Notes: generated by a model from the sequence alone, not told the origin. Shown: positions 22,446 through 57,318, numbered from the stretch's first letter. The stretch is DNA of 64,000 bases from an uncultured Actinomycetes bacterium (GCA_964510455.1 CAZECO010000001.1:35693-99692); one strand, 5' to 3'. Translations and numbers: made by a program.

Positions 22446-22537
22446 TCCGGCGACGGTCCTTGAACCGGGCGGGGGAGAGGGGCACTCTGCACAGAGAGGC
22501 CGTATCCATCGACTTCCCCACGATGAGGAGCCCGGCG

Positions 22538-41572: not shown

Positions 41573-43578
41573 CGTTCCACCTCCCGCAGCAGTTCGATGA
41601 TCTCGCTGGCGAGGGCGTTGAGGTCGTTGTCGATCTCTTCGAGGGGCCGGGGCGGGGCGTACTTGTAGAAGTGGCGGGTGAAGGGGATCTCGTAGCCGAC
41701 CTTGGTCTTGGCGGGGTCGATCCAGGCGTCGGGGACGTGGGGGAGGACCTCGTGCTCGACGTAGGCGGCGATCAGCGCGTCGCGGTCGCTGCGGCCGCCG
41801 GCGCTGTCGCCGTGCTGTCCGGGCGGCGCCCAGTCGAAGGGGACGTTCTCGGTGTCGCGCAGCGAGACGTCCGGTTCGGGGTTGCCCTTGCTGTCGGTGC
41901 AGATGTCGGCGGTGTCGTCGCGCCGCGAGAGCCCCTGCCACAGGGCCTTCATAGCGGGCGCGCCGAGGGTGATCCCGGCGGTCTGCAGGTGGGGTTTCAG
42001 CGCGGCGAGGAACGCCTCCCGGTTGGTGTGCACGGCGCCGCCGAACGACTCCAGCGCGGCTCGCAGGGCCGACGGGTCGACGGCTTTCAGCGAGCCCTTG
42101 CCCGCGGCTGTGTCGAGGAGTGCGTCGATCCGTTCCGGGGCGCAGGCGAAGTTCAGCCGCAGCGGCCGTTCGACGGTGATGGTGCAGTACCCGAAGTCGG
42201 TGGAGGCGAACACCCGGGAGTACTCCGCGTCCTGCTCGGGCTGCTCGTCGAGCGCGTCGTAGATCCGCACGATGCGGGCGCGGTCGGCCGGAGACACCTC
42301 GCGTGACTTGTCGCCGAGGTTGCGGCGCATCTTGGTGAAGAACTGCGACCCGTCGATCAGTTGCACCTTCCCGGCCCGGGTCGGCGGTTTGGTGTTGTCC
42401 AGTACCCAGATGTAGGTGGCGATCCCGGTGTTGTAGAACATGCTGGTCGGTAGGGCCACGATGGCGTCGACGAGGTCGTTCTCCAGCAGCCAGCGGCGGA
42501 TCTCGGACTCGCCGGACTCCGCGGCGCCGTTGAACAGCGGCGACCCGTTGAGGACCATCCCGGCCCTGCCGCCGCCCTCGCCGGCGGGCCGCATCTTGGA
42601 CGCCAGGTGGGTGAGGAACAGCATCTGGCCGTCGCCGATCTTCGGCAGCCCGGGACCGAAGCGGCCGCTACTGCCGGTGCGGGCGCGCTCGGCCTTCACC
42701 GACTCCTCCGATGCCTTCCAGTCCACGCCGTACGGCGGATTGGACAGGCAGTAGTCGAAGGTCTTGCCCGCGAACTGGTCGTCGGCGAGGGTGTCGCCGA
42801 GCCGGATGTTGGAGGCGTCCTGACCCTTGGCGATCATGTCGGACTTGCAGATCGCGTAGGACTGGTCGTTGAGCTCCTGCCCGTACAGGCGCAGCCGGGC
42901 GTCGGGGTTCTGGGCCAGCAGGTGCTCCTCGGCGACCGACAGCATGCCGCCGGTGCCGGCGGTCGGGTCGTACACCGACCGGACCACGCCCGGTTCCAGC
43001 AGCGCGGCGTTGTCCTCCGCGAACAGCAGGTCCACCATCAGCCGGATCGCGTCGCGCGGGGTGAAGTGCTCCCCGGCCTCCTCGTTCGACGCCTCGGCGA
43101 ACTTGCGGATCAGCTCCTCGAACAGGTCGCCCATGTCCGCGTTCGGGACGGTATCGGGGTGCAGGTCCACCTCGGCGAACCTCGACACCACCAGGTAGAG
43201 CCGGTTCTTCTCGGCCAGGGTGGCGATCTCGTTTTCGAACTTGAACCGGGCGAACACGTCGATGTTGGGGGAGAAGCGGCTGATGTAGTCGGTCAGGTTC
43301 GCCGCCAGCCCGTCCGGGTCGGACAGCAGCCGTGCCATGTCGTACTCGGAGGTGTTGTAGAACGCCATCTGCGTCCGCTGCCGCACCAGGGCCGACAGTA
43401 CGGCCGGGTTCTCCGTGGTCTCCGCGATGGCTCGGACCTGATCGCGGGTCGGGGCCATCAGGCAGTCCAGCCGGCGCAGGATCGTCATAGGCAGGATCAC
43501 GTTGCCGTACTGGTGCGGCTTGTAGACACCGCGCAACTGGTCCGCGATCGACCACACGAAGTTGCCCAGGTTGCTCAT
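41569..43578 (-). CDS. hsdM: type I restriction enzyme, M subunit (N6-adenine methyltransferase)
   Basis: MSNLGNFVWSIADQLRGVYKPHQYGNVILPMTILRRLD. SAM motif is VYDPTAGTGGML. Catalytic motif is LSNPPYGVDW. Confidence 0.95.
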   Translation of the reverse strand: MSNLGNFVWSIADQLRGVYKPHQYGNVILPMTILRRLDCLMAPTRDQVRAIAETTENPAVLSALVRQRTQMAFYNTSEYDMARLLSDPDGLAANLTDYISRFSPNIDVFARFKFENEIATLAEKNRLYLVVSRFAEVDLHPDTVPNADMGDLFEELIRKFAEASNEEAGEHFTPRDAIRLMVDLLFAEDNAALLEPGVVRSVYDPTAGTGGMLSVAEEHLLAQNPDARLRLYGQELNDQSYAICKSDMIAKGQDASNIRLGDTLADDQFAGKTFDYCLSNPPYGVDWKASEESVKAERARTGSSGRFGPGLPKIGDGQMLFLTHLASKMRPAGEGGGRAGMVLNGSPLFNGAAESGESEIRRWLLENDLVDAIVALPTSMFYNTGIATYIWVLDNTKPPTRAGKVQLIDGSQFFTKMRRNLGDKSREVSPADRARIVRIYDALDEQPEQDAEYSRVFASTDFGYCTITVERPLRLNFACAPERIDALLDTAAGKGSLKAVDPSALRAALESFGGAVHTNREAFLAALKPHLQTAGITLGAPAMKALWQGLSRRDDTADICTDSKGNPEPDVSLRDTENVPFDWAPPGQHGDSAGGRSDRDALIAAYVEHEVLPHVPDAWIDPAKTKVGYEIPFTRHFYKYAPPRPLEEIDNDLNALASEIIELLREVER

Positions 43579-43858
43579 CCGACCTCCGTTCTAGTGCCAG
43601 TACACAGGCGAAGCCACGTGCTGAGATGCAATAGAGCGCAAGTCGTTGGCACGGGGGCCCGGCGTGGGACTCAGTCCTGGCGGTTGGACCCCCCCACAGA
43701 TCGGTCTCCGACCCCAGCCTTCCCATTCGTGATCAAGGCCGACGCCGGTGACGTGAGGAACCTGAGCACTCAGTGCCTCCAAGCCGGACTCTCGCTGCGT
43801 CCCGCCTGGGAAAAGGTGCAGTCCGCTCACTGACGGGCCCGGCTGCGACACTGCCTCC

Positions 43859-44869
43859 GTGCGAAGAGCCGAGGTAGAGGTGAAAGTTCTGGCGGCGGTC
43901 GACGCGGTTCGGCGAGGGCAGCGAGTCGAGGATGACCTCGTCGAATGCAAGAGCGACTGGCCGGATACCGAGAAGGCAAGACAGTTCGCTGGACTCTGCA
44001 ATAGGGCACGAGGGCATCCAGTGCTGTTGATAGTCGGGCTCGACGAGAAGACGGGCCGGGTGACCACGCTGAACTCAACCGACCCCGCCAACTGGTGGCC
44101 GTCCTTTTCCGCGCGTTTCGACGAGGTAGCACCCGACCTTGATGTCCACATGGTTGTCCCAGTTGGCAACGATGAGCAAGTCGTCGCCCTTCTGTTCGGA
44201 ACCGGCCGGGTCCCATACGTGGTCAAGAGTTCCGACGGCACCGGGCCCCATCGCGAGATCCCAATGCGGGCAGGAACGGCAACACGGGCTGCCTACCGGC
44301 ACGAGATCGTCAAGATGCTTGGGCCGACGATCAACCTGCCGAGCATCACAGCGCTCAGCGCAGAGATCTTCGCTGCCCGGCGGATATCACCGGGCGGGCC
44401 AGCAAGCGAAGAGACAACGGTTCAGATAGCCGGAACTGTCTGGGTGTATATCGAACACCTCGCGGCGGACTTCGCCATGATCCCCGCGCACCGCATCGAA
44501 GCCCGTCTGTCGTTCATCGATGTCGTCCTACCTGTCAGCGTCCAGACTGCACAGTCGACCCTCCGGTTCTTTGGTAAGGATGAAAGCCCGCCAACGCGGC
44601 AGCCAGAACGGCGATTTGGTGTGGACGCACGCCATGACGGCCTGCTTGTCACCGGTCCTGGGCGAACACCGATGTACTTCAGCCGGCAGGTGAACCTGGA
44701 GGACATGGAGGAGATTGCGACCGCGAAGTCCTGCAAGATCACGATGACGCTATACGTCGATGGATCGGACGTTCCCGTCCGACTGGTTACGGTCGCAGAT
44801 CGTCAAGATTCTCGCAATACGAATGGAAGCGAGGTGGCCTACTGGGCTTCCCCCGTCGGTATGGCTTAG
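43859..44869 (+). CDS. AlbA_2 (Schlafen-like) N-terminal domain protein with an uncharacterised C-terminal half
   Basis: EDDLVECKSDWPD...ARQFAGLCNRARGHPVLLIVGLDEKTGRV...VVALLFGTGRVPYVVKSS...IPMRAGTATRAAYRHEIVKML follows the AlbA_2 pattern as I remember it (E.K....A..N..GG.l..Gv.d.g...PY....iR.Gs.T..A...Ei). A sampled line was ~57% GC, below the rest. Confidence 0.5.
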   Translation: MRRAEVEVKVLAAVDAVRRGQRVEDDLVECKSDWPDTEKARQFAGLCNRARGHPVLLIVGLDEKTGRVTTLNSTDPANWWPSFSARFDEVAPDLDVHMVVPVGNDEQVVALLFGTGRVPYVVKSSDGTGPHREIPMRAGTATRAAYRHEIVKMLGPTINLPSITALSAEIFAARRISPGGPASEETTVQIAGTVWVYIEHLAADFAMIPAHRIEARLSFIDVVLPVSVQTAQSTLRFFGKDESPPTRQPERRFGVDARHDGLLVTGPGRTPMYFSRQVNLEDMEEIATAKSCKITMTLYVDGSDVPVRLVTVADRQDSRNTNGSEVAYWASPVGMA

Positions 44870-44944
44870 CCCGTCCGGCGAAGGGCCCAGCGGCCGGCAA
44901 CCGTCGCCTTCGCGGAGTGGTGGGTTAGACGATGGGTTAGACGT

Positions 44945-45065
44945 GTCGAGGGTCTTGCCCCGCGAACTGGTCGTCGGCGAGGGTGTCGCCGAGACGGATG
45001 TTGGAAGGATCCTGCCCCATGGCGATCATGTCCGACTGACAGATCGCGAGAGACTGGTCCTTAGG
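44945..45065 (-). pseudogene. relic of a second hsdM gene (internal ~40 codons only)
   Basis: Nucleotide match to hsdM 42760-42870, about 85-90% by hand alignment with one 1-nt indel. Encodes QSLAICQSDMIAMGQDPSNIRLGDTLADDQFAG versus intact QSYAICKSDMIAKGQDASNIRLGDTLADDQFAG. Confidence 0.85.
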
Positions 45066-45201
45066 CTGCCGAGCGGCCGTGCGCGCGTGATCCCTGCTCA
45101 CGGCCCAGGGACAATGAACGGGATCTGGAACCTTACGAATCGGCAAAGTCCGCCGCCGATGCACTCTTGATCCAAGCGACCTGACGGAGGGAAGAGTTTC
45201 C

Positions 45202-45807
45202 GTGACTGAATGGCTACCGCTGACCTCGGCCATTGCCACGATGGTCTCGGCGACGGCCGCCTGGGCAGCGGTCTTCGTGGTCGGGCGCCAGGTGCGGGAG
45301 ATGCGCAGACTCCGGGAGGAACAGGCTCGGCCTTTCGTCGTAGTGCGGCTGAAACTCGGCCGGCTGGTGTCGATCGTTGTTGAGAACGTCGGCCCAGCAC
45401 AAGCCCGCGATGTCCGCTTCAGCTTCGCTCCACCGCTAACGTCCACATCGACCAGCAGCGGCGGGCCCTATCCGGCGGTGAGGGCTCTCGCACTGCAAGA
45501 GGGACTCGAGAGCCTCGCGCCCGGCGACGCTTTCGAGTTCGTGCTGGACGCATCCGCTGATCGATTTAAGAGAAGTGATCTGCCCATGCGGATCGAGGCG
45601 TCTGCGACCTACCACCAGACTCTCGATGGCAAACTTCGGCGATACACCGACACATACGTCCTGGACCTGCAGTCCCTGGGTTTCGCGACCCTCCCGACTA
45701 ACCCGCTGGACGAAACGCGGAAGGAACTGGCAAAGATCGCGGGCCAAATGAAGGGGCTGAATGAGGCGGCAGCTCGAGTCAGCAGGCAGCTCGAGCGGGA
45801 GACGTAG
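45202..45807 (+). CDS. hypothetical protein with one N-terminal TM helix
   Basis: GTG start. TM is LPLTSAIATMVSATAAWAAVFVV. The rest is soluble with no motif I recognise. Lower GC. Confidence 0.55.
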   Translation: MTEWLPLTSAIATMVSATAAWAAVFVVGRQVREMRRLREEQARPFVVVRLKLGRLVSIVVENVGPAQARDVRFSFAPPLTSTSTSSGGPYPAVRALALQEGLESLAPGDAFEFVLDASADRFKRSDLPMRIEASATYHQTLDGKLRRYTDTYVLDLQSLGFATLPTNPLDETRKELAKIAGQMKGLNEAAARVSRQLERET

Positions 45808-45919
45808 GCGCCCTGTGGCAGCGCGCGCGCTTGCTGTTCGTCCCCGCCACCCAGCCATCTCAGCGCTTAAGGACCGGCGTTACCACCGGCGAGTCACAGG
45901 GCTTCTGCGCGTCGCCGCG

Positions 45920-47005
45920 TCACAGCTCGACCGACGCGCGCGCGGGCGGGTTGACGACGTCCATGACGGTCTCCAGTGGGAGCCCGCTGAACTCGGCGAC
46001 TGCCTCGGGCGTCGCGCCGCTGGCGAGGGCGAGCTGGTACGCCCTCGACAGCAGTTGGGGCCGTTCCACGGTGGGGAGCGGGAATGGTTCGTACGTCCGC
46101 CCGTAGGTCTGCCCTAGGACGATCATCGCGCGACGGTAGGCGCCGTCGCTGATGACAGCCAGGGTCTTGGCCCGGTACAGAAGCGCCTGGATGGACACCC
46201 CCCACCGGGCCTTGAGCCGGGCGTACCTGCCCAGGTCGAAGCGGCGGGGCAGTTCGTCGGCGATCAAGTGCGCGGGCATGAGCAGTTCGGCGGCGAAGGC
46301 GTGCGCCTGCGCCTCGTGCGCTCCAGATGGGTCGGGGTCGGGGTGGCAGACGAGGTGGCCGAGCTCGTGGGCCGTGCTGAACCTCAGCCGCGCGGCGTCG
46401 CTTCCCCGTTCAGGACCCAGGACGACGACTGGGCGGCGGGATTGGTTTTGGCTGAACGCGTCGATCCGCGGCGAGTACGGTCCGGACCAAGCGGTGACGG
46501 TGCCGTGAACCTCAAGGTTCCGAAGGAGGTTCCCGATCGGGCCGTCGGGCAACTGCCACTCCCGGCGAAGAGTGTTGGTCGCTTCCCGCAACTCGGCCGG
46601 TCCGGCGTCGGGTGCCAGGGGGAAGGTCGGGACGGCGGCGGCTGGCAGATCAACCCAGGCCTCTAACGCCGCCGCGATGTCCAGCACCATCTCGCTCCAT
46701 GCCCAGGCGGACTGTCGTTCGCGCAGGGTTGAGGACCGCAGCGAGCGGAAGTGAACCCCGTTCGCGCCGGCGCCGGACAGATCGCGGCGGCCCATGGTGA
46801 AGAACAGCAGTGGCAGTTGGAGTGCCAGCGCCAGACGCGCGGCCGTTGCCGGCGTCGGGCCGATCCGTCCGGACTCCATCTGGGACAGGCCGCCCGCAGT
46901 CACTCCTGCGGCCGCGGACAGATCGCGCAGGGTCATGCCCCGCAGGTGGCGCGCCAGGCGAAGCCGCTCTCCATCGAAGGCTGCGGCGGCTTGTTCAGCC
47001 TGCAT
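45920..47005 (-). CDS. XRE-HTH fused to an ImmA/IrrE-type (COG2856) metallopeptidase
   Basis: HTH is MTLRDLSAAAGVTAGGLSQMESG. Peptidase motifs are TAHELGHLVCH (HExxH) and EAQAHAFAAELLMPAHLI. Confidence 0.85.
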   Translation of the reverse strand: MQAEQAAAAFDGERLRLARHLRGMTLRDLSAAAGVTAGGLSQMESGRIGPTPATAARLALALQLPLLFFTMGRRDLSGAGANGVHFRSLRSSTLRERQSAWAWSEMVLDIAAALEAWVDLPAAAVPTFPLAPDAGPAELREATNTLRREWQLPDGPIGNLLRNLEVHGTVTAWSGPYSPRIDAFSQNQSRRPVVVLGPERGSDAARLRFSTAHELGHLVCHPDPDPSGAHEAQAHAFAAELLMPAHLIADELPRRFDLGRYARLKARWGVSIQALLYRAKTLAVISDGAYRRAMIVLGQTYGRTYEPFPLPTVERPQLLSRAYQLALASGATPEAVAEFSGLPLETVMDVVNPPARASVEL

Positions 47006-47654
47006 CGTGCTGACGCTGCGCGCGAGGGGACAGGACGATGACGGGCTCGGGCTGCAGGTGGTAGTCCGGGGTGGCCGCCGCCGGCCCCGTCTCGGGGAAG
47101 ACGGCGCGCTGGCGGCCCTGGCTCGCTGCCTCGAAGGGAATGAGTTCGGCCCAGCGGGCCTCCGCGTCGGTTCGGGCGGGGAGGATACGCCCGACGTGGA
47201 CAGCCGTCAGCCGGCCCTCGCCGGGGATCGTCCAGACGAGATGGACAACCGCCTCCACGCCCGCTACTGGCATCCCGGGCAGTTCCGGCTGCACGGCACC
47301 GCTGTTGATCGCAGCCGCGCGACGGCGGGTGGCAGACGATCCCGCGTCGAATACCCCCCGATGCCGCAGATCGTCACTGCCTGCCGTGGCGAACTGCAAC
47401 TCGTGGCGGTCCCTGGCCGCGATGAGCGCGGCACCCTGTCGACGCAGTCGGTACCCAGCACGTTGGAGTGCGGGCTCGGCGATGGCAGTTGCGCGCAGAT
47501 AGCGCTCGATGCCGAACAGAAGGGGGCTGCTGCCTGCCTCTCCCAGCCCTGCGCCGGCGATCCGGGCGGCCGTGTGGCCTGCCTCGGCGAGTCCTTGCAG
47601 CAGCTCCTCCGACAGGCTCACCGGACCGATATCCATGGACAGAATGTACAGCAA
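46995..47654 (-). CDS. hypothetical protein, translationally overlapped with the HTH-ImmA/IrrE gene
   Basis: 219 aa (or a start at MDIGPVS, 47636). Its stop overlaps the downstream start by 11 nt. No motif recognised. Confidence 0.55.
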   Translation of the reverse strand: MLYILSMDIGPVSLSEELLQGLAEAGHTAARIAGAGLGEAGSSPLLFGIERYLRATAIAEPALQRAGYRLRRQGAALIAARDRHELQFATAGSDDLRHRGVFDAGSSATRRRAAAINSGAVQPELPGMPVAGVEAVVHLVWTIPGEGRLTAVHVGRILPARTDAEARWAELIPFEAASQGRQRAVFPETGPAAATPDYHLQPEPVIVLSPRAQRQHDAG

Positions 47655-47807
47655 TACGTTGCATGAGCGTCCCCTTGTATAGTGGCGTGATCAAGTCGAT
47701 ACCCAGTCGTGGCGAGCGACCGGCGCTACGGGACCTAGAATGGGAGCCAACATGGCCAGCCCCTCTGCTCGCAAGGGCTGGTTCTTGCTTTCCCCGCCGG
47801 CGGCGAC

Positions 47808-48791
47808 GTGAGCCGCGCATACCTCAAGCCGTTCCTGACCATCGCCCAGCAGCGCGAACTCATGCAGTCCCGCGGGCTTGTGGTGGCCGACCCCGACGCC
47901 CTGGAGCACGCGCTCCGCACGGTCGGGTACTACCGGCTCAGCGCCTACACCCACACGTTCCGCGTTCGAACGGTCGGCATCGACGGTGCACAAGTTGTCC
48001 AGGACACCTACCTCCAAGGCACGACGGCCGAGCACGTACTGGCGCTGTACGAGTTCGACCGCAGGCTGAAACTCCTCGTCCTCGACGCGGTCGAGCGGAT
48101 CGAGATCGCGATGCGGTTCAGCGTGGCGCACACCCTGGGGGAACGGGACCCGTTCGGCCACCTCAATCCAGCCAGCCTCGACGGCCGGTTCACGGCAGCA
48201 ACTGGGCACGATGCCGGCTATGCCCGCTGGCTGCAGGGGTACGAGGATGCGCAGGGAAGGGCGAAGGAGGCCTTCGTCGAGCACTTCTCCGTCCAGTATG
48301 ACGGCCGGCTGCCGATCTGGGTCGCGGTCGAGATCATGCAGTTCGGACAGTTGTCGGTCCTGTTTCGGGGTCTCAGGCCGGAGGACCGGTTCCGTATCGC
48401 GGAATCGTACGGCCTGCGCGATCCGAAGGTCATCGGCTCATGGCTTCATTCGATGACCTACATCCGGAACGTCTGCGCGCACCACTCAAGACTGTGGAAC
48501 CGGAACATTGATGTCCAGCCACGGCTGCCGGCCGTTGGCCGGACCCCGGTGCTGGACCACGTGCGCGAGCACCTACCCCACGCCCTGGCCAGGCCGTACG
48601 GGGTTCTCTGCGTGATCCGATTCCTGATGGGGCGGATCGAACCCGAGGGATTTTGGGCGGCCGCCCTGCACCGCCATCTCGACACGCTCCCTGTGGGAGG
48701 CCCCGTCCACGCATACGCCATGGGATTCCCTCCCGACTGGCGCAGCCAACCGCTCTGGCACGGTCGAACGATGGCTGATCCTGAGTTGTGA
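47808..48791 (+). CDS. Abi_2 (AbiD/AbiF-type) abortive-infection family protein
   Basis: YLKPFLTIAQQRELMQSRGLVV...LRTVGYYRLSAYTHTF...LALYEFDRRLKLLVLDAVERIEIAMR...IRNVCAHHSRLWNR are the hallmark blocks of the Abi_2 family. Confidence 0.85.
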   Translation: MSRAYLKPFLTIAQQRELMQSRGLVVADPDALEHALRTVGYYRLSAYTHTFRVRTVGIDGAQVVQDTYLQGTTAEHVLALYEFDRRLKLLVLDAVERIEIAMRFSVAHTLGERDPFGHLNPASLDGRFTAATGHDAGYARWLQGYEDAQGRAKEAFVEHFSVQYDGRLPIWVAVEIMQFGQLSVLFRGLRPEDRFRIAESYGLRDPKVIGSWLHSMTYIRNVCAHHSRLWNRNIDVQPRLPAVGRTPVLDHVREHLPHALARPYGVLCVIRFLMGRIEPEGFWAAALHRHLDTLPVGGPVHAYAMGFPPDWRSQPLWHGRTMADPEL

Positions 48792-48950
48792 AGTTGCAGG
48801 CTCGATGGCGGCCTTCTGGTCGATTTGGTTGGCGGCTTCATCCGGGTGGCCGGTTCACAGACGAGTAGCGACCATAGGCCCGTCAGGAGCCCCAAACCGC
48901 CCCGCCAGAGGCTCTCGCTTCTGCCGAACCAGTCAGGTTGGACTGCACTC

Positions 48951-48968
48951 GTGACGGGCGTCAGGGTC
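48951..48968 (+). other. orphaned first six codons (GTG ACG GGC GTC AGG GTC) of the resolvase gene split by the transposon
   Basis: Joining 48951-48968 to 56737 onward gives (M)TGVRVGYVRVSSEGQ in frame. GGGTC at 48964-48968 is repeated at 56732-56736. Confidence 0.7.
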
Positions 48969-48971
48969 TGA

Positions 48972-48996
48972 TGTCAAAGTCCGAAGTCCTGTGCAC
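48972..48996. repeat. left terminal inverted repeat TGTCAAAGTCCGAAGTCCTGTGCAC
   Basis: Exact reverse complement of 56704-56728. Begins TGTC and ends GCAC, like Tn402/Tn5053 IRs. Confidence 0.9.
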
Positions 48997-49114
48997 GGGC
49001 CGCCGAGGTGGGACCGGGTTGGTGCAGTCAGGTTCAGACCTACGGCCGGACCGGATTCCTATGCACTAACGTTCGATCTGACCGTGTTCCTGTGCACGAC
49101 AGTGAGGATCGGCG

Positions 49115-50773
49115 ATGGACGACCCGGGCGTGGTGGCGGAACGCGGAGTGCTGACAGCGCCTGCGGAGGTGTGGCAGCTGGCGGTACGCCGGGCGGAGGT
49201 GATCGGCCGGCTGGCCGGCTTTGACGCCATCGGGCATGCGGCGGCCGACAGTGCCGCTGCCGAGCTGGGCATTTCCCGTCGGCATGTGTACGGACTGCTG
49301 CGGCGTTGGCGGGCCGGAGCGGGCGTGGTCTCCGATCTGGTCCCGGGCAAGTCCAGCGGCGGCCGCGGCCGTGAGCAGCTTTCCGCGCCCGTGGAGGCTG
49401 TGATCCGCGAGGTGCTGCGCACCCGCTATTTGAGCAGACAGCGGCGATCAATGGCTGCGGTGCACCGCGAAGTCGCCCGGGTGTGCCTGAGCCGGGGCCT
49501 GCCGGTCCCGTCGAAGGGCGCAGTGGTGCGCCGAGCGGCGAAGCTCGATCCGGCGGCCGCTGTGGCCGCGCGCCATGGACCGGACGCCGCGCGGGATCGC
49601 AGGTCCGCCGGTGGTGTCGCGCCGCCAGTGACCAGGCTGCTGGAGCAGGTGCAGATGGATCACACCCCGGTTGATGTGATCGTCGTGGACGAGCGGCATC
49701 GCCTGCCGATCGGTCGTCCTTACCTCACGGTGGCGATCGATGTCCTCAGTCGCGGCATTGGGGGCATGGTTGTGACGCTGGAGGCGCCGTCGGCGCTGTC
49801 GGTGGGGCTGTGCCTGGCGCATCTGGTCACGGACAAGAGGGCCTGGCTGGAACGCCTCAGTGTGAGTGAAGCGGTGTGGCCGGTGAGCGGCAAGCCGTCC
49901 GAGATCTACGTGGACAACGCTGCGGAGTTCAAGAGCGAGGCCCTGCACCGGGGCTGTGAGCAGCACGGGATCAGGATCGAGTGGCGACCGCCGGGGCAGC
50001 CGCACTTCGGCGGGATCGTGGAACGGGTGATCGGCACGATGATGCAGATGGTCCACGAGCTGCCGGGCGCAACGTTCTCCAACCCGCAGCAGCGCAAGGG
50101 CTACGACTCCGATCGCACCGCGGTGCTGACGATCCGCGAGCTGGAGCGGTGGCTCGCCCTGGCGGTGGCCGTCTACCACGGGCAGGTGCACAGCACCTTG
50201 GGCCAAACCCCCGCCGCGCTGTGGGCCGAGGCCGCCACCGCGAACGGTCATCCGCCAACGGTCACCAGCGAAACGGCGTTCCTGGTGGACTTCCTGCCGG
50301 TGATCCGGCGCACCCTGACCCGGACCGGGTTCGTCATCGACCACGTGGGCTACTTCAGTAACGCCCTGAAGCCCTGGATTGCCCGCCGCGAGCAGCTGGG
50401 CCGGTTCGTGTTGCGTCGCGACCCGCGCGACATCAGCCGGATCTGGGCCTTGGACCCGCAGGAACGCACCTATATAGAGGTGCCGTACCGGACGGTGTCG
50501 CATCCGCCGATCAACCTGTGGGAGCACCAGGCCGCAGTAGCCCGGCTGCGGGAGCAGGGCCGCGCCCAGGTCGACGAGCATGCCCTGTTCCGCACGGTCG
50601 AGCAGATGCGCGCGATCACTGACACGGCGACGAAGACCACCCGTCGGGCCCGCCGCGACGTGCAGCGGCGTGCCGCGACGCCCTCGCCGCGGACCGCGCT
50701 GACGATGCCGCCACCGACGGTGGTCGACGCAACGGAAGCCGCTGCACCGTTCACCGTGGTCGAGGAATGGTGA
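49115..50773 (+). CDS. tniA: TniA (Mu/Tn7 TnsB-like DDE transposase)
   Basis: N-terminal HTH (AAAELGISRRHVYGLLRRW). DDE region is QMDHTPVDVIVVD ... IYVDNAAEFKS ... GGIVERVIGT. GAGGA sits upstream of ATG 49115. Confidence 0.9.
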   Translation: MDDPGVVAERGVLTAPAEVWQLAVRRAEVIGRLAGFDAIGHAAADSAAAELGISRRHVYGLLRRWRAGAGVVSDLVPGKSSGGRGREQLSAPVEAVIREVLRTRYLSRQRRSMAAVHREVARVCLSRGLPVPSKGAVVRRAAKLDPAAAVAARHGPDAARDRRSAGGVAPPVTRLLEQVQMDHTPVDVIVVDERHRLPIGRPYLTVAIDVLSRGIGGMVVTLEAPSALSVGLCLAHLVTDKRAWLERLSVSEAVWPVSGKPSEIYVDNAAEFKSEALHRGCEQHGIRIEWRPPGQPHFGGIVERVIGTMMQMVHELPGATFSNPQQRKGYDSDRTAVLTIRELERWLALAVAVYHGQVHSTLGQTPAALWAEAATANGHPPTVTSETAFLVDFLPVIRRTLTRTGFVIDHVGYFSNALKPWIARREQLGRFVLRRDPRDISRIWALDPQERTYIEVPYRTVSHPPINLWEHQAAVARLREQGRAQVDEHALFRTVEQMRAITDTATKTTRRARRDVQRRAATPSPRTALTMPPPTVVDATEAAAPFTVVEEW

Positions 50774-51681
50774 GCGTGACCGCAGGACCCGACGACCTGG
50801 CGCACCTGCACCAGACCGCGCGGGGGGTCGCGCTGCTGCCGGCCGAGGAACGGCTGCGCCATGTGCGGGCGGATCGGTGGATCGGTTACACCCGCGCCAC
50901 TGACGCGATCACCCGGTTGGAGGCGTTGTTCTCATGGCCGGATAAGCAGCGGATGCCCAATCTGCTGCTGATCGGGCCGACGAACAACGGCAAGTCCATG
51001 ATCGTGGAGAAGTTCCGGCGGATGCATCCGCCGGTGTCGTACCCGGACCACGAGCACATCCCGGTGCTGGCCGTGCAGATGCCCTCCGAGCCGTCCGTGA
51101 TCCGCTTCTACATCGCGTTGCTCGCGGCCCTCGGCGCCCCGCTTCGTCCCCGGCATCGGCTGGCCGAGCTGGAGCAGGTCACCCTCGGGCTGCTGCGTCA
51201 GGTTGGCGTGCGGGTGCTGGTCATCGACGAACTGCACAACGTGCTTGCCGGGCGCGGCGACGCCCGCCGGGAGTTCCTGAACCTGATCCGGTTCCTGGGC
51301 AACGAATTGCGGATCCCCCTGGTCGGGGTCGGCACCCGTGAGGCGTACCTGGCGATCCGTTCCGACGACCAGCTGGAGAACCGGTTCGAGCCGTTCCCCC
51401 TGCCGCGATGGCAGCCCGACGCCGAGGCGCGCTCGCTGCTGGCCAGCTTCGCCACCTCGTTCCCGCTGCGGCGGTCCTCACCGATCGCCACCGAGGAGAT
51501 GGCCGCCTACCTGCTCACCCGCAGCGAAGGCACGATCGGCGAACTGGCCCGGCTGCTGACCGACGCCGCGATTGCCGCGATCGAATCCGGCGAAGAAGCG
51601 ATCAACCAGCGCACCCTGCTCATGGCCAGCTACGCCGGTCCCACCGAACGGCGCCGGCTGTTCGAGCGGGAGCTGGCGTGA
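50767..51681 (+). CDS. tniB: TniB (AAA+ transposition helper ATPase)
   Basis: LLLIGPTNNGKSMIVEKF (Walker A). VLVIDELHNVL (Walker B). Overlaps tniA by 7 nt. Confidence 0.9.
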   Translation: MVSVTAGPDDLAHLHQTARGVALLPAEERLRHVRADRWIGYTRATDAITRLEALFSWPDKQRMPNLLLIGPTNNGKSMIVEKFRRMHPPVSYPDHEHIPVLAVQMPSEPSVIRFYIALLAALGAPLRPRHRLAELEQVTLGLLRQVGVRVLVIDELHNVLAGRGDARREFLNLIRFLGNELRIPLVGVGTREAYLAIRSDDQLENRFEPFPLPRWQPDAEARSLLASFATSFPLRRSSPIATEEMAAYLLTRSEGTIGELARLLTDAAIAAIESGEEAINQRTLLMASYAGPTERRRLFERELA

Positions 51682-52853
51682 GCCTGGGCCGACGGTGGCC
51701 GCTGCACCCTCGGCCGTTGGCTGGTGAGACGCTGTCGTCGTGGCTGACTCGGATCGCTGATGTCCACGACCTAGGTATCGACGAGTTGCTGCGATACAAC
51801 CTCGGTTCGGTCCGTGTCGACCCTTGGCGTGACCTTGCCGGTCTCGATGTCGATCCGCCCGCCGTCGTTCTTGATGTGCTGGCCGAGCGGACCGGGGTGC
51901 CGACGCCCGACCTGGCCAGGATGGCGGTCAGCGGTTGGATCCCGTGGCTGCTGGACACTCTTGAGCATCACTCGGACGCTTACGCCACCTATGTCCGGCA
52001 GGACTGTGTGCTGCTCGCTCCTGGCGAGGCTCCACCCCGCAATCCGGCCCGGTGGCGACCGTGGCTCGCGCGGGAGCCGATGCGCCGTGGCTGCCCCCTG
52101 TGCATGAGCGGATCGACACCGGCGTTCAGCCTGGTGTCGCAGATACCACTCACCTTGTCCTGCCCTGAGCACGGTTGCAGGCTCCAGGCCACCTCCGGCG
52201 TTCCGGGCAGGTTTCTGGGCTGGGCCACGACCTCCGGCGAGCCCGTGGCAGCCGGCGCTGCCGTGCAGACGATGGACCGGCTCACTTATGAAGGCATGGC
52301 CACCGGGATGGTCACCCTGCCCCGCCGGTCCGTGCACCTCGGGGTATGGCTGCGCCTGCTGCGCGGCCTGCTCGACGAGGTCAACACCCCGCTGTCGCTG
52401 GTGCGTCGGGCGAGCGCCCGCACCATTCGCCAGATATGGGCCGCCGCCGGTCAGCGAATCCGCGCCGGCGAAACCGCATGGCGACCGTACGAGTCCCTGG
52501 ACTGGAGTGTGCAGCAGGCGATGCTCGAAGCCGCAGCCGCCGCATTGCATCTGGCCGAGACTGGCAGCATCACACCCCACGGCAGCCTCGGTCCGCTGCT
52601 GCAGGCCGAGCCCTACCGCCCTGCAAGCGATGGCGTGCCACCCAGACTTTCCGACCGACGAATCGACGTCGCCAACCCGGCGCGCGACCGAGCCGGCGAC
52701 GCATTGCAGGAAGCCACGACCGTGCTGCAGGACGCAATCGCCGCCGCCCAGGCCGACCCGAACTCGGCACGGCAGCTGCTCGGCGTGATCACCGAGTTCT
52801 GGAGGAGCTCCTGCCCGATCAGGACGAGATCGCCGAGTCTTTGTAGATCTTGA
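51678..52853 (+). CDS. tniQ: TniQ (target-selection protein)
   Basis: Tail of track ORF 51408..52853 from GTG 51678 (GTGA overlap with tniB). RRWPLHPRPLAGETLSSWLTRIADVHDLGIDELL is the typical TniQ N-terminus. Cys pairs: CPLC...CPEHGC. Confidence 0.85.
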   Translation: MSLGRRWPLHPRPLAGETLSSWLTRIADVHDLGIDELLRYNLGSVRVDPWRDLAGLDVDPPAVVLDVLAERTGVPTPDLARMAVSGWIPWLLDTLEHHSDAYATYVRQDCVLLAPGEAPPRNPARWRPWLAREPMRRGCPLCMSGSTPAFSLVSQIPLTLSCPEHGCRLQATSGVPGRFLGWATTSGEPVAAGAAVQTMDRLTYEGMATGMVTLPRRSVHLGVWLRLLRGLLDEVNTPLSLVRRASARTIRQIWAAAGQRIRAGETAWRPYESLDWSVQQAMLEAAAAALHLAETGSITPHGSLGPLLQAEPYRPASDGVPPRLSDRRIDVANPARDRAGDALQEATTVLQDAIAAAQADPNSARQLLGVITEFWRSSCPIRTRSPSLCRS

Positions 52854-52922
52854 GGCAGTCCTCAGCGGCAAGGGCGTCGAGCTGCAGCTGCGGATCTTGG
52901 TCCGCGGTACTGACTCGGGCAT

Positions 52923-53396
52923 GTGGCCACCGGCACCAAGAGCGACCGCCCCGAGTGGAATGCTTGCCTCGCCGATCTGCGCCCCGGCGACACGCTGATC
53001 ATTTGGAAGATCGACCGGCTCGGCCGAAACCTGCGCGACCTGGTGGACATCGTCGCCGTTCTTGAAGCCCGCGGCGTCGGCGTCAAGTCGCTGACCAACG
53101 GCATCGTCGACACGACCACCGCCCACGGCAAGCTCGTCTTCGGCATGTTCGCTCTCATGGCCGAGTACGAAGCGGCCCTCATCAAAGAACGCACCCTCGC
53201 CGGCCTAGCCGCCGCCCGCGCACGCGGCCGCACCGGCGGGCGCAAACCCAAAATGACCCCAGCCCTGATCAACAAGGCGCAACGCATGTACGACGCGAAG
53301 CAATTCACGATGGCCGAGATCGCTGCCTCCTGCGGCGTCACCCCCATGACGATCTACCGCAATATCAAGACCAGCCCGGCCGCCGCAGCGCTATGA
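52923..53396 (+). pseudogene. tniR: 5'-truncated serine resolvase (tniR-like); catalytic-Ser region missing
   Basis: The ORF begins at ...GTKSDRPEWNACLADLRPGDTLIIWKIDRLGRNLRDL, about residue 40 of a normal resolvase. No YxRVSxxxQ segment upstream. Only 70 nt separate it from tniQ. The C-terminal HTH is intact (FTMAEIAASCGVTPMTIYRNI). Confidence 0.75.
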
Positions 53397-53411
53397 CCTG
53401 GAGTTCGGCCC

Positions 53412-53446
53412 TGTGAGGCAGCATTCTGTGATCGCTGTATGTCCCC
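53412..53446. repeat. inner inverted repeat, left copy (TGTGAGGCAGCATTCTGTGATCGCTGTATGTCCCC)
   Basis: Matches the reverse complement of 56619-56653 at 28 of 35 positions, including a 16-nt perfect core GCATTCTGTGATCGCT (hand alignment). Confidence 0.8.
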
Positions 53447-53728
53447 ATCCCGTTCGACGAGAAGTGCTCAGCCAACCAACCCCGACCGCATTCCTGGGGA
53501 GGCGAAGGACGACGGTCATTCCGCCCAGAGTGGGGCGGTGCGGAGACTCAGGAGAATCGGGTTCCTAGTGGGATCAGGGCCCAGGAATCCCTCGACGAGA
53601 GTGAGTCCGCTGGACCGGTTTGCGGGTCCCTTCGGCAGGGCATAACGTCCGCGTCTCGCCGTTGGCTTCGCTGCGGGCGGGTCCCCATGCCCGGGTGGCT
53701 GGTTTAACCGTGAGGTGCGTGATCGTGA

Positions 53729-55498
53729 ATGACCATTTCCGCTGATTTGGTGGCTGAGCCGACGCTGGCCGTCGTTGATGGCCTTCGAGTCGTGTGGGCA
53801 CCGGGCGCCGGGCCACGCTCGCACGCTGGCCTGGTCTTTCGCGTGGGTCAAGCCGACGAGTCCTTGAGCACTCGCGGGATCACGCATCTGTTGGAGCACC
53901 TTGCCCTCGAGGGAACTGGAGGGTCAGCCCCGCACAATGGCGAGACCGACCTGTTCACGACCACGTTCACCGTTTCGGGCACTTGGTCGGAGATCGACAC
54001 TCACCTCGCGAGGGTCGTCGCCAACCTGAGGAGTCTGCCCGAGCAGCGCCTTGACTTCGAGAAGCAAATCTTGGCCGCGGAGGAGCGGGGTCATTCGGCA
54101 GGAGTCTTTGGGCAACTCGCGCTGTACCGTTACGGAGCGACGGGGGCGGGGTTGACCCAGTTCCCTGAGTGGGGCTTACCGCGGATCGGCGCGCCGGCAT
54201 TGCGGGACTGGGCGGACCGCTACTTCTCGCGGGAGAACGCGGTGCTCGTCATCGTGGGCCCTCAACCGCCGGATCAACTGTCCTGGCAACTGCCCGCAGG
54301 GGAAGCCCGTGCCACTCCGGAGCCCGCGCCTCCCACCTCGCGCGTGCCGAGCTACGCGTTCGACCACGTGGCCGGCCCGGCCCTGATGGCCGAAGTCGCC
54401 CGTTCGACCGCCGCCACTGCGTTCACGGCAATCGCCGATCGCGAACTGATGCGGCACGTCCGCGGCGAACTGGGTCTGGCCTACCGCGCATCCGCCGGAT
54501 ACGTACCGGTCTCCGCCAATCGTGCCGTGATCATCGCCCACACGGATTCGGTCGACGGCCAAACGCAGCAGACCGTCGACGCGTTCCTCGACGTCTTGTT
54601 CCGACTGGCTTCCCATGGCCCGGATGAGCAAGTGCTGGCCGAAGTGGCCGCGATGCGGAAGGCCGCACTCGCCGAGCCGAACGCGGCCTTCGCTCTGGCC
54701 CACAACGCGGCCCGCAACATCCTCGATGGCCTGCCCATCACACATCAGGCTGAACTGGACAGGAAGTTCGATGCGTTGACTCCTGCCGATGTGCAGGCGG
54801 TCGCCTCAGCGGTGCTGCGCAGCGCCGTGGTGCTGTTGCCGCACCAGGCCCGGGCGATCGGCCGCGGCGGTTTCACCCCAATCGGGGTCGCAGACTCCGT
54901 GCCCGTGGAAGGCAAGAAGATCTTCCTTCCCAACGATCCCGACGGCACGAGGGCCAACCTGATCATTGGGACCGATGGCATCAGCCGCCTGCGCGGCGAC
55001 GAGGCCATGACCATCCGATTTACCGAGGTCGCCGCGTTGCTGAGGCGGTCCGACGGGACACGCGTCCTCATCGCCAACTCGGCCGACACCATCGAGGTGG
55101 ACCCCAAGAAACTTGGCCCCACGCGCATGGAGCAGGTCGATGAGGCGGTCCCCAGGGACCGCTGGATCGACCTCGCGGGACCTTCCGCGCCGGTGCCTGA
55201 ACGCGAGGACGGGACCCCGAAGGCGCCGCTGACGTGGTACCAGAAATTCCTGTTCGTCCCCCTCCGCGCTGCGGTGGTGGCGCTTCTGGTGATCATCGTC
55301 TTCACGCTGGTCTGGCCGATGGACGCCCAGGAGAACCTCATTCCGCCTGGGGACCAAATCATGCTCGGGCTGGGGATCGTGGCCGCGTACGCGGACCACG
55401 CCCTGTACGCGCGCCGGGCACGGCGGCGCAACGGGGAACGGGCTGACCACAGGGCGAATCGCGAACGGGACCGACGCAACGCGGAGGCAGCCTCATGA
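53729..55498 (+). CDS. M16 (pitrilysin/insulinase)-like metallopeptidase homologue with C-terminal TM helices
   Basis: Inverted zinc motif HxxEH in GITHLLEHLALEG. Downstream FEKQILAAEE resembles the distal Glu region. C-terminal hydrophobic stretches FLFVPLRAAVVALLVIIVFTLVW and IMLGLGIVAAYA. Confidence 0.7.
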   Translation: MTISADLVAEPTLAVVDGLRVVWAPGAGPRSHAGLVFRVGQADESLSTRGITHLLEHLALEGTGGSAPHNGETDLFTTTFTVSGTWSEIDTHLARVVANLRSLPEQRLDFEKQILAAEERGHSAGVFGQLALYRYGATGAGLTQFPEWGLPRIGAPALRDWADRYFSRENAVLVIVGPQPPDQLSWQLPAGEARATPEPAPPTSRVPSYAFDHVAGPALMAEVARSTAATAFTAIADRELMRHVRGELGLAYRASAGYVPVSANRAVIIAHTDSVDGQTQQTVDAFLDVLFRLASHGPDEQVLAEVAAMRKAALAEPNAAFALAHNAARNILDGLPITHQAELDRKFDALTPADVQAVASAVLRSAVVLLPHQARAIGRGGFTPIGVADSVPVEGKKIFLPNDPDGTRANLIIGTDGISRLRGDEAMTIRFTEVAALLRRSDGTRVLIANSADTIEVDPKKLGPTRMEQVDEAVPRDRWIDLAGPSAPVPEREDGTPKAPLTWYQKFLFVPLRAAVVALLVIIVFTLVWPMDAQENLIPPGDQIMLGLGIVAAYADHALYARRARRRNGERADHRANRERDRRNAEAAS

Positions 55499-56418
55499 GC
55501 ACGCCAGGTTGGGTGACCGACCCATTCCAGGGAAGCGTCGCTGCGGCTGACGCGACCGCCGCGGCCAAAGGACGGGACCGGGTCCGGATCGTTGACGCGA
55601 TCACTGCAGCACAACCGTCAGAGCGTTCCATCCTCGTGCTCAGCGTTGCCGAGGTGCCGGACCTCGTCGATTGGCTAAGTGAATGGCTGACCGACGACCC
55701 GAACGACCCATGGTTGAACGCGATCACAGCCGAGGCCTACCTGAACTGGGCGAAGCAGGCGCGCGGAGATGCCCCGGTGAAATGGGTGACCGCCCAAGAG
55801 TGGCAGCGGTTCCACGCCCGAGCCGCGGCGGCCGCCGACATCGTCAGGCACGCCCAGAACCTCACGAACGACACCGCACTCGCCGGCCTGCCCGCCCTAG
55901 GCGTCGCGGTGATCAACGGCGGAACCACCGAGGACGTGCATCGCGCCCTCTCGGCCATCGACACCGCCTACCCACACGACTACACCGTGCTCCGCAGGGC
56001 CCTCACCTACTTCGCGCCGAGGTGGTACGGCGACATCACGCAGGTGTGGGACCTGGCGCTACCCCAGTCGGCAGCCGCGCCCGATGGCGCCCCCACCGCG
56101 GCCATCGTCGCCGCAGCCGTCGTAGAACAGTGCGTTTGGGTGCCCAAGGCCCCCGGCGGCCAGCCTGGACCGCGGATGGCAGAACTGCTTGACGAGGCTG
56201 CCGCACGAACCGTCGAGCACCCCTCGTGGCAATGGACTCCGTCCGGCTGGGTGGCGGTGAACGAACTCGTGCTGGCCAACCTGGTTGCAGGCCGGGCGGG
56301 GATCGCACGCCAGCTGTACGGAAAACTCACTGAGCAGCGACGGACGCAGTCTCCGTGGGAACTGCTCAGCGGCGTCAACCGCTCCAAGCACTTCGCCCGG
56401 CTCTCGGGATCCGGATAG
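55495..56418 (+). CDS. hypothetical helical protein (possibly DUF4034-like), translationally coupled to the M16-like gene
   Basis: ATGA overlap at 55495-55498. 307 aa. The segment LTYFAPRWYGDITQVWDLA recalls the l.PrW.Gs motif of DUF4034 (memory only). Confidence 0.55.
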   Translation: MSTPGWVTDPFQGSVAAADATAAAKGRDRVRIVDAITAAQPSERSILVLSVAEVPDLVDWLSEWLTDDPNDPWLNAITAEAYLNWAKQARGDAPVKWVTAQEWQRFHARAAAAADIVRHAQNLTNDTALAGLPALGVAVINGGTTEDVHRALSAIDTAYPHDYTVLRRALTYFAPRWYGDITQVWDLALPQSAAAPDGAPTAAIVAAAVVEQCVWVPKAPGGQPGPRMAELLDEAAARTVEHPSWQWTPSGWVAVNELVLANLVAGRAGIARQLYGKLTEQRRTQSPWELLSGVNRSKHFARLSGSG

Positions 56419-56618
56419 GCCCAGCAGCGGCTGTGGAGAGCCGGTGAAGCCCGCCACCTGGGAAGGCGAGGGTGCGTGTCACAGCGCCGCCTGTGACCTT
56501 GCCGGCTAAAGCCGCAAGGGGACGACAGGGCAGATGTTGCCGTGGCCGACGTCCACCCAGGCCGTGGTCGGCCGGCTGGTCCTCAGCCCGCGCGTTTGAG
56601 CAGCGATTACCAAATGCT

Positions 56619-56653
56619 GGCGACACGTAGCGATCACAGAATGCCGCCATACA
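56619..56653. repeat. inner inverted repeat, right copy
   Basis: GGCGACACGTAGCGATCACAGAATGCCGCCATACA. A degenerate tandem copy lies just upstream of it (AGCGATTACCAAATGCTGGC, about 56602-56621). Confidence 0.8.
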
Positions 56654-56703
56654 TCGCGGAGCTCCAACAACTATGACCCCCGTGCAGACGACTCCGGTCA
56701 TCC

Positions 56704-56728
56704 GTGCACAGGACTTCGGACTTTGACA
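56704..56728. repeat. right terminal inverted repeat GTGCACAGGACTTCGGACTTTGACA
   Basis: Exact reverse complement of 48972-48996. Confidence 0.9.
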
Positions 56729-56730
56729 CG

Positions 56731-57318
56731 AGGGTCGGGTACGTGCGGGTTAGCAGCGAGGGGCAGAACCTTGACCGTCAGCTCGCCGACGTTGAACTGG
56801 ACCGGGTGTTCGCCGACAAGGTGTCGGGGAAGGACACCGAACGGCCGGCGCTGGCGGAGCTGCTGGCGTGGGTGCGCGACGGGGACACCGTGGTGGTGCA
56901 TTCGATGGACCGGCTGGCCCGGAACCTGGACGACCTGCGCCGCCTGGTCCGCGACCTGACCGGGCGGGGGGTGCGGGTGGAGTTCGTCAAGGAGGGCCTG
57001 ACGTTCACCGGCGACGACAGCCCGATGGCCACCCTGCTGCTCTCGGTGATGGGGGCGTTCGCCGAATTCGAGCGGGCCCTCATCCGCGAACGGCAATTGG
57101 AGGGCATCGCGGCCGCGAAGCTGCGCGGGGTCTACAAGGGCCGAAAGCCGAAGCTGACGCTGGAACTGGTCGTGGATCTGCGGGCGCGGGCGGCGGCGGG
57201 GGAGCCGAAGGCGGCGCTGGCGCGGGAGTTCGGGATCAGCAGGGAAACGCTGTACCAGTACCTGCGGGCGGTGCCGTCCGAGGCACCAACGGCCCCGAAC
57301 CCCGGTTCCTCTGTTTGA
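56731..57318 (+). CDS. small serine recombinase (resolvase/invertase) body, separated from its native first codons by the transposon
   Basis: RVGYVRVSSEGQNLDRQ (catalytic Ser region), DRLARNLDDL, and C-terminal HTH LAREFGISRETLYQYL. The track ORF starts at GTG 56704, which lies inside the transposon IR. Confidence 0.85.
   Translation, partial: RVGYVRVSSEGQNLDRQLADVELDRVFADKVSGKDTERPALAELLAWVRDGDTVVVHSMDRLARNLDDLRRLVRDLTGRGVRVEFVKEGLTFTGDDSPMATLLLSVMGAFAEFERALIRERQLEGIAAAKLRGVYKGRKPKLTLELVVDLRARAAAGEPKAALAREFGISRETLYQYLRAVPSEAPTAPNPGSSV

Follow-up and report, generated by a model that had tools for sequence, protein, structure and literature searches.

A transposon of 7,757 bp occupies positions 48972-56728 of the window, the stretch of 64,000 nucleotides (nt) from an uncultured Actinomycetes bacterium (GCA_964510455.1, CAZECO010000001.1:35693-99692) to which all coordinates refer unless another locus is named. 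The element is an actinobacterial member of the Tn402/Tn5053 family of res hunters, and it stands beside a resolvase gene without a 5′ end. Comparison with intact alleles shows that 122-125 bp have been lost from the target DNA. We consider it likely that the element inserted normally in the resI-resII part of a res site, that the 122-125 bp beside its IRo terminus were lost afterwards, and that the element later decayed. The order of these events, the original junction and the mechanism of the deletion are what we infer from the sequence.

The element was assigned to the family because of its Pfam domains, the identity of its TniA to the TniA of In2/Tn21 (59.9%), and its family-type termini with subterminal repeats, which agrees with an earlier note on this DNA, made from the sequence alone, that had recognized a Tn5053/Tn402-type transposon here. 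The family is defined by a tniABQ-res-tniR module, 25-bp terminal inverted repeats (IRs) named IRo and IRt, and replicative transposition (PMC7765201). Its members prefer res sites to which the cognate resolvase is bound, insert with IRo nearest the resolvase gene and with 5-bp direct repeats (DRs), and concentrate in resI-resII (PMC7765201). Transposition in the family passes through a cointegrate and depends on the resolvase of the target. The ends and transposition genes of the element are as follows.

48972-48998, plus strand: IRt, the tniA-proximal terminal IR (TGTCAAAGTCCGAAGTCCTGTGCACGG); the ends of close relatives align from 48972 and their duplications abut there
49049-49066 and 49080-49097, plus strand: subterminal copies of the IR core, presumed TniA binding sites, with 4 mismatches in 18 nt each
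49115-50773, plus strand: tniA, DDE transposase of 552 amino acids (aa), with Pfam rve and Mu-transpos_C
50767-51681, plus strand: tniB, AAA+ ATPase of 304 aa (Pfam TniB, 1.8e-77)
51678-52853, plus strand: tniQ, 391 aa from a GTG that overlaps the tniB stop (Pfam TniQ, 2e-17)
56682-56728, minus strand: IRo end, with the terminal IR at 56702-56728 and one subterminal repeat at 56682-56699; relatives L089 and L090 have homologous IRo ends

The tniA-tniB-tniQ order of the family is thus present, with damage at the 3′ end of tniQ, as are the 25-bp IRo and IRt with subterminal repeats and an insertion in or next to res with IRo nearest the target resolvase gene. The 5-bp DRs are missing from this copy, and of its own res and TniR only a wreck is left; the module is intact in L090. 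TniA falls in a 90%-identity cluster with other members of 552 aa and equals its close relatives in length, and TniB has the same length as TniB of L089 and L091. Thousands of enterobacterial plasmids carry a TniA to which that of the element is 59.9% identical over residues 7-552, and one of these plasmid records shows the classical Tn21/In2 context merD-merE-urf2-tniA-tniBΔ-IS1326. The G+C content is 70% for the window and 68% for the element. The termini have the form TGTC…GCAC over 25 bp with arrayed repeats, and extra copies of the IR core were found on both sides, two next to IRt, of which the inner one (49080-49097) ends 17 nt before the tniA start, and one next to IRo. The 25-mer TGTCAAAGTCCGAAGTCCTGTGCAC at 48972-48996 and its inverted copy at 56704-56728 are its only two sites in the window even when up to 3 mismatches are included, and none was expected from 100 shuffles. 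The earlier note was right that the terminal repeats are perfect and right about their coordinates; their length, given there as 25 bp, is 27 bp according to the repeat finder (48972-48998 and 56702-56728). Tn7-like and Tn5053-like elements of Actinobacteria have been catalogued and called experimentally uncharacterised by Benler et al. (PMC8649781), and no experimental transposition test of this actinobacterial clade was found in the searched literature. Neither the element nor its host replicon was present in PLSDB.

A TniA scan of species-representative genomes yielded 79 related loci, mostly from actinomycetes, and their ends were called by a TGT/ACA-anchored comparison of 25-mers, which replaced an exact-seed search that was too strict. 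Duplications directly abutting TGT(C/G)…ACA were found in 13 relatives, and the duplication rule used here rests on these clean cases. Ten of the 13 are exactly 5 bp long, nine of them perfect: GAGAC in L005, CCCGT in L019, ATGGA in L033, GACCA in L044, TGGCT in L046, ATGGT in L062, GCGTC in L064, GCGAC on both flanks of L089, GCGGC on both flanks of L091, and ACCGC on the left against CCCGC on the right of L090 (4 of 5 positions matching). The other three abutting duplications are of 6 bp (L002), 7 bp (L027) and 4 bp (L017). The closest relatives, L089, L090 and L091, were found through the TniA cluster and are 87-91% identical to the window element at the nt level, starting exactly at 48972; in all three, the flanking 5-mers adjoin termini of the form TGTC…GACA. 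Because no offset between terminus and duplication was seen in any of the 13, the element ends at 48972 and 56728; the earlier note had regarded the termini as ambiguous by 3 nt, and the close relatives fix them. The 5-mers that abut these termini in the window differ, TCTGA on the left and CGAGG on the right, and this copy has no target duplication.

Two explanations that would have kept 3 nt outside each IR were rejected. Termini that are 3 nt longer in this lineage are ruled out by the three closest relatives. Donor flanks carried along, comparable to the 3-nt offset of TnsA in Tn7, fail because one donor duplication cannot yield TGA on the left and CGA on the right, because there is no tnsA, and because CGA is target sequence. 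A likeness between the right flank of L017 and that of the window was put down to coincidence, as L017 has no resolvase there.

The relatives also show where the family inserts. In five independent cases (L005, L019, L026, L089 and L091), IRo always faces the same way, and the catalytic Ser codon of the adjacent resolvase gene lies 116, 123, 123, 124 or 128 nt downstream of it. Such spacing is far tighter than a mere preference for somewhere in res. Two Nonomuraea elements that are 95% identical, L019 and L036, have about 19 nt of left flank in common (L019 9818-9836 and L036 295-313, gtcccgaaac.cgt) and share neither the outer left DNA nor the right flank; they may represent a second DR-less derivative or insertions into related res sites, and this pair was left as ambiguous.

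The DNA on the two sides of the window element contains the following features of its target.

48792-48971, plus strand: surviving distal part of the target res region, by alignment to L084 and L083
48932-48955, plus strand: putative resI, palindrome GTCAGG-N12-CGTGAC
48959-48966, plus strand: putative left half-site (CGTCAGGG) of the next subsite, possibly resII
56729-57318, plus strand: decapitated target resolvase gene from the middle of codon 3 (gCG AGG GTC…), with Pfam Resolvase (4.1e-37) and HTH_7 (1.1e-10)

The gene encodes a small serine recombinase with the catalytic Ser motif and a C-terminal HTH_7 domain, is 74% identical in aa to the TnAs1/Tn21-type TnpR of an E. coli plasmid, and is truncated at its 5′ end, with no promoter, Shine-Dalgarno sequence or start codon. 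The closest intact allele, P0002 on L083, is 94% identical in aa and begins GTG GGC GCG AGG GTC GGA TAT; the allele of L084 is 81% identical, and the homologues start with MARVGYTRVSS, MSGARVGYTRVSS or MRVGY…. The right flank aligns from its first base, with 56729 matching position 1012 of L083 (91% identity) and position 3011 of L084, and therefore the apparent spacer CGA to the right of the element is the end of an Ala codon plus the A of AGG. The left flank aligns elsewhere. Positions 48923-48969 match L083 842-887, with none of 1000 shuffles reaching the score, and 48792-48966 match L084 2706-2880 with 81% identity over 177 columns (score 176 against a shuffle maximum of 33). In both loci, the left flank ends about 115-125 nt upstream of the start codon. 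In a multiple alignment the last column of the left flank is 136 and the first of the right flank is 262, and between the projected junctions the comparators have 122 nt (L083) or 125 nt (L084). Thus, 122-125 bp have been lost from the window. In the intact alleles this stretch holds the palindromic elements TGTCAGG…CCTGAC and GGGTCATAGAGTCCA..CTGACAG, the Shine-Dalgarno sequence, the start codon and two to four codons. Neither conserved motif occurs anywhere in the window, which also lacks a third copy of the IR, so a transfer of the missing res segment to another place in the window was rejected.

These alignments also settle where the element sits. The earlier note had placed it at a res/resolvase locus, which holds: the left junction is in res-homologous DNA and IRo points toward the resolvase gene, the orientation preferred by the family. 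Its further claim of an insertion inside the 5′ end of the resolvase gene does not, since the left flank is res DNA about 115 nt upstream of the true start in intact alleles. These alleles have about four GTCAGG-type palindromic elements upstream of the gene, at the place where modules of the Tn21 subgroup have a tripartite res, and the window retains the distal one and a half of them. The resI assignment draws on palindromy and on a mosaic breakpoint in L092, a locus from another sample that matches the AbiD side of the window at about 93% and diverges at 48948/48949, inside the GTCAGG-N12-CGTGAC palindrome (L092 2340-2400). Such a breakpoint is what a res crossover site joining different cargo to different resolvase modules would give.

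Here, we propose the following course of events. The element would have inserted into the resI-resII part of the res site of a Tn21-TnpR-like resolvase on a plasmid-like replicon or one resembling an integrative and conjugative element (ICE), at what is now the left junction, some 115 nt before the start codon, and with IRo toward the resolvase gene. The 122-125 bp between IRo and resolvase codon 3 would then have been lost. With them went the rest of the res subsites, one of the two copies of the 5-bp duplication, the region of the promoter and the Shine-Dalgarno sequence, and the start of the gene up to and including its first 2-3 codons. Afterwards, the element would have decayed by deletion of its own res and the 5′ end of tniR, inversion of 84 nt of tniR and a frameshift at the 3′ end of tniQ. 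The left junction is regarded as original and the right one as displaced because the left lies in the normal zone of the family, resI-resII. IRo is now 23 nt from the catalytic Ser codon, and the left junction projected on L083 is about 150 nt from it, which becomes about 23 nt when 122-125 nt are subtracted. The uninterrupted allele should then contain about 120 bp between …GGCGTCAGGGTCTGA and CGAGGGTCGGGTAC….

The deletion reaches exactly to the final base of IRo, which is intact, and its endpoints ACA|TCT and GCG|CGA have no microhomology in common, which suggests that it was most likely made by the transposition machinery. One way would be intramolecular replicative transposition into the adjacent half of the res site to which resolvase was still bound, an event that produces an adjacent deletion and no duplication; recombination between two copies inserted at different positions is another route and would leave the same sequence. 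Tentatively, and with alternatives together being the better bet, the IRo-precise adjacent deletion can be seen as the footprint of a res hunter that re-attacked the half of the res site it had just split. If so, a single step would erase the resolution system of the prey (resII/III, promoter and start codon) and strand the element. Together with the loss of the element's own res and tniR, it would make res hunters self-limiting parasites that tend to destroy both of the resolution systems they need.

Several points weigh against the proposed history. No truly isogenic empty site was found, the closest intact allele being 94% identical in protein; the upstream DNA of L083 is about 81% identical over 47 nt only, and the match to L084 is longer with a more distant gene. 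Several relatives lack clean duplications in the end calls, and some of the calls derive from weak IR matches. The order of events and the deletion mechanism are unobservable in a single sequence. In addition, target immunity is usual among Tn7-like and Mu-like elements, and if this family shares it, an attack on DNA 120 bp away from one of the element's ends would be disfavoured.

Loss of the 125 bp in another way, by ordinary slippage or repair deletion or during insertion through uncoupled joining of the two ends to sites 125 bp apart, is unlikely. Such errors do occur in this DNA, since the same element carries a microhomology-associated deletion and inversion scar between tniQ and tniR (GCCGAGTC/GCCCGAGTC). 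However, this deletion reaches precisely to the terminal base of an intact IRo, which would be rare for a random event, and its endpoints share no microhomology.

The reverse order, in which the element first inserted at the right junction in codon 3 with CGAGG as the duplication and about 125 bp to the left of IRt were deleted later, fits the sequence data equally well, and insertions outside res and on the IRt side of resolvase genes are seen in relatives L002, L017 and L090. However, a distance of 23 nt to the Ser codon falls short of the 116-128 nt cluster of the relatives by about 100 nt and is outside the resI-resII cluster reported for the family (PMC7765201), and the left junction is in the typical zone. 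Hence we judge this order improbable.

The earlier note had proposed a clean insertion in codons 5-6 of the resolvase gene, with GGGTC duplicated and 3 extra nt at each end. The two copies exist, each 3 nt outside an IR.

48964-48968, no strand: left GGGTC, the end of a res half-site (CGTCAGGGTC)
56732-56736, no strand: right GGGTC, codons 4-5 of the resolvase (aGG GTC, Arg-Val), conserved in intact alleles

Judged from the alignments, the pair is a coincidence of a res half-site with resolvase codons 4-5. What the two sides really share is AGGGTC, and its spacers are unequal, with TGA between repeat and element on the left and CG on the right. Among random junction pairs from the window, 1.1% show a repeated 5-mer that is shifted by the same number of nt (1-5) on both sides, and 6.1% show one when the offsets are free; the odds for GGGTC are higher than these figures because intact homologues already hold near-matching motifs at both places, as in L083 with CAGGGGC and GAGGGTC. 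As a target duplication GGGTC is contradicted by the differing 5-mers that abut the termini and by the abutting duplications of the 13 relatives. Different duplications in related copies, which the earlier note had named as the sign that GGGTC is accidental, are what L089 (GCGAC), L091 (GCGGC), L090 (ACCGC/CCCGC) and seven more 5-bp cases show.

The rebuilt gene fares no better as evidence. Excision of 48969-56736, which is said to restore MTGVRVGYVRVSS…, joins 48951-48968 to 56737-57318 in frame, and the product does translate to VTGVRVGYVRVSSEGQ… (199 aa), so that the joined reading frame is real; the rebuild is not exact, since 122-125 bp are gone. An intact homologue (P0003) starts MSGARVGYTRVSS, with a leader of equal length. 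However, the textbook N-terminus that was cited in support is already encoded by the right flank alone (RVGYVRVSS), and the proposed start codon, GTG at 48951, is part of a palindromic res-like subsite and no Shine-Dalgarno sequence precedes it, where the real alleles have GGGGAG or GGGAGG. On the reading of the earlier note, …GGCGTCAGGGTC of an uninterrupted allele would have to run directly into GGGTACGTGCGG…, as contiguous …GGCGTCAGGGTCGGGTACGTG… and without the extra ~120 bp. A clean insertion with GGGTC duplicated is therefore very improbable: it has no offset relative to support it against 13 abutting duplications (ten of exactly 5 bp), its spacer CG(A) matches the Ala codon GCG before AGG/CGG GTC in intact alleles, its left flank is homologous to res DNA that in L083 and L084 precedes the start by 115-125 nt, its repeat has a chance probability of 1-6% even before the common AGGG.C motif is counted, and it needs a prior 125-bp deletion plus an unprecedented insertion geometry. 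For annotation, the case is a caution: because sequence is shared between res half-sites and the conserved 5′ codons of resolvase genes, chance alone can produce both a convincing short direct repeat and a rebuilt gene that stays in frame.

The decay of the element is concentrated between tniQ and the cargo, where the following remains of tniR lie.

52837-52920, minus strand: inverted tniR block, codons ~8-37 (ARVSTADQ…KIYKD, catalytic Ser included), equal to L090 14041-13958 reversed with 91.7% identity
52923-53396, plus strand: 3′ part of tniR, from codon ~38 through the stop (HTH_7 and, of the Pfam Resolvase profile, only positions 43-144)

Alignment with TniQ of L089 and L091 shows a deletion of about 57 nt near 52790 that shifts the frame of tniQ and replaces about the last 40 native residues; the native tail EELLPDQDEI persists in frame 2 and matches L090. 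In L090, an intact tniR on the plus strand encodes 197 aa starting VGHKIGYARVSTADQ…, with a res-like intergenic region upstream. The window segment 52923-53381 corresponds to L090 14042-14500 (87% identity), and L090 13679-13957 is replaced by 37 nt in the window. About 175 nt were deleted at the tniQ-tniR junction, comprising the last tniQ codons, the res of the element and tniR codons 1-7, and the scar junction has a microhomology of 8 of 9 nt. The inverted 84-nt block and the 3′ part of tniR are thus a pseudogene. A programmed switch was rejected as the origin of the inversion, which comes with the deletion of the start and res, the tniQ frameshift and only the 8/9-nt microhomology. The scar is base-for-base the same in the independent assembly L097 (SRR16797979), and both outer junctions of the element recur in independent Logan assemblies of several runs, which shows that these structures are real and not artefacts.

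L089 (13754-14314) and L091 (9271-9831) have, instead of a tniR of the window/L090 type, a minus-strand resolvase of 186 aa that is 74% identical at the nt level to the target resolvase of the window (56734-57278), and their homology to the window ends inside tniQ. This suggests that the hunters exchange their tniQ-3′/resolvase module with their prey.

With both modules damaged, neither resolution system is expected to work. That of the prey would be dead: resI is 7.7 kb from the gene, the proximal subsites are gone, and there is no promoter, Shine-Dalgarno sequence or start codon. A shortened resolvase might still be made by read-through from the cargo genes, starting from GTG 56743 or from GTG 56704 in IRo. 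The latter had been pointed out in the earlier note and indeed opens a 204-aa open reading frame in the resolvase frame; its product would carry nine IR-encoded residues, and the start has no Shine-Dalgarno sequence. GTG 56743 has GAGGG 8 nt upstream, and its product would lack the β1 strand (RVGY). Any truncated resolvase is predicted to be inactive, given the loss of the β1 strand and of every proximal res subsite. The element itself could at best form cointegrates with help in trans, and would be unable to resolve them on its own.

The cargo region between the tniR remnant and IRo contains two genes that are bounded by an inverted repeat.

53399-53447, no strand: left arm of a 49-nt imperfect inverted repeat, by repeat finder
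53729-56418, plus strand: cargo pair, found in this copy and in none of the relatives compared
53729-55498, plus strand: gene for an M16-type zinc peptidase-like protein of 589 aa with an HLLEH zinc motif at residue 53
55495-56418, plus strand: gene for a 307-aa protein of no family, overlapping the M16-like gene
56618-56666, no strand: right arm of the 49-nt imperfect inverted repeat, by repeat finder

Searches of NCBIfam, PADLOC and PDB sequences gave nothing informative on the cargo. The 307-aa protein had no Pfam, NCBIfam or PADLOC match, and its best match among PDB sequences (E 0.03) was not significant. The arms of the repeat are 78% complementary with the core GCATTCTGTGATCGCT and are placed exactly where homology with the relatives stops (cargo 53382-56681). 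The core occurs in no other fetched locus, and the arms have no flanking duplication. The repeat may be what is left of a nested mobile unit, or else a site of recombination.

Upstream of the target lies a defence island within 37191-48791, which comprises type I restriction-modification genes hsdR/S/M, an RmrA-like HTH-M78 gene and AbiD, and ends at the res site with the following gene.

47808-48791, plus strand: AbiD/Abi_2 abortive-infection gene, the last of the island (Pfam Abi_2, 2.8e-52; PADLOC AbiD, 1.3e-62)

Further away in the window are a ParA-like ATPase and a MobA/VirD2-type relaxase (22157-23593 and 32217-34544), and tblastn with two TnpA queries found no match to a Tn3-family transposase in the 64 kb. 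These neighbours and the missing transposase mark the target as a res-resolvase module that stands alone on a plasmid- or ICE-like replicon, which is the type of prey classically taken by the family. The homologous resolvases in L084 and L086 likewise lie beside defence-type genes. A metagenome scan with the left-flank pattern gave no match and missed L083 itself too, and a second scan with the 5′ end of the gene returned L099 only. The resolvase allele of L099 (700-800) is 76% identical at the nt level and has an in-frame stop and a much shorter upstream region, and is seemingly another degraded res-resolvase module; its left-flank match (score 23) is within shuffle noise, and it was used neither for nor against the proposed history.

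Close relatives of Tn402/Tn5053 with a TniA about 60% identical to that of the class 1 integron backbone and with varied cargo thus occur in many actinomycete genera, where they hunt Tn21-type resolvase loci 74% identical to enterobacterial TnpR, inserting 116-128 nt upstream of the catalytic Ser codon. For a 70% G+C context this cross-phylum similarity is high, both for the target resolvase (74% in aa to TnpR) and for TniA (60% to that of In2). Compared with Tn402/Tn5090 and the class 1 integrons (In2 in Tn21), the element has the same tniA-tniB-tniQ order, the same type of 25-bp termini and the habit of targeting res sites of Tn21-type resolvases, and as in In2 several subterminal repeats lie near the tniA-proximal end, the innermost of which stops about 16-17 nt short of the start of tniA. 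Unlike them, it resides on an actinobacterium-like replicon of 70% G+C, carries the M16-like peptidase and the 307-aa protein in place of an integron, and has a wrecked tniR and res and no 5-bp DRs.

With Tn5053, Tn502 and Tn512 the element shares the tniABQ-res-tniR plan (intact in L090), the insertion in resI-resII with IRo by the resolvase gene and, in its relatives, the 5-bp DRs. DR-less copies are known in this group as well and have been explained by activity of the inserted transposon of the kind observed with Tn502 (PMC7765201). Unlike these transposons, the window copy has no mer operon, and its deletion, for which a size of 122-125 bp could be measured, removes the start of the target resolvase gene. 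In104 of Salmonella genomic island 1 is a Tn402-family element just upstream of a resolvase gene that splits res and inactivates Tn3-like resolution (PMC12217951); here, in contrast, precise removal of the element could not restore resolution, since res subsites and the gene start are gone. The target resembles the TnpR-res modules of Tn21/TnAs1 in its resolvase and in the several GTCAGG-type inverted half-sites upstream of its intact alleles, but it has no adjacent Tn3-family tnpA and stands alone beside a defence island on a replicon with a ParA-like ATPase and a relaxase. In standing alone on such a replicon it is similar to parA-res, the plasmid multimer-resolution module of IncP. Taken together, these comparisons show that the element is an ordinary DR-less, deletion-bearing and partly degraded copy of its family, each single feature of which has a precedent, and that it illustrates a typical end state in which the DRs are absent, the resolution of the prey is destroyed, and the element's own resolution module and tniQ are decaying.

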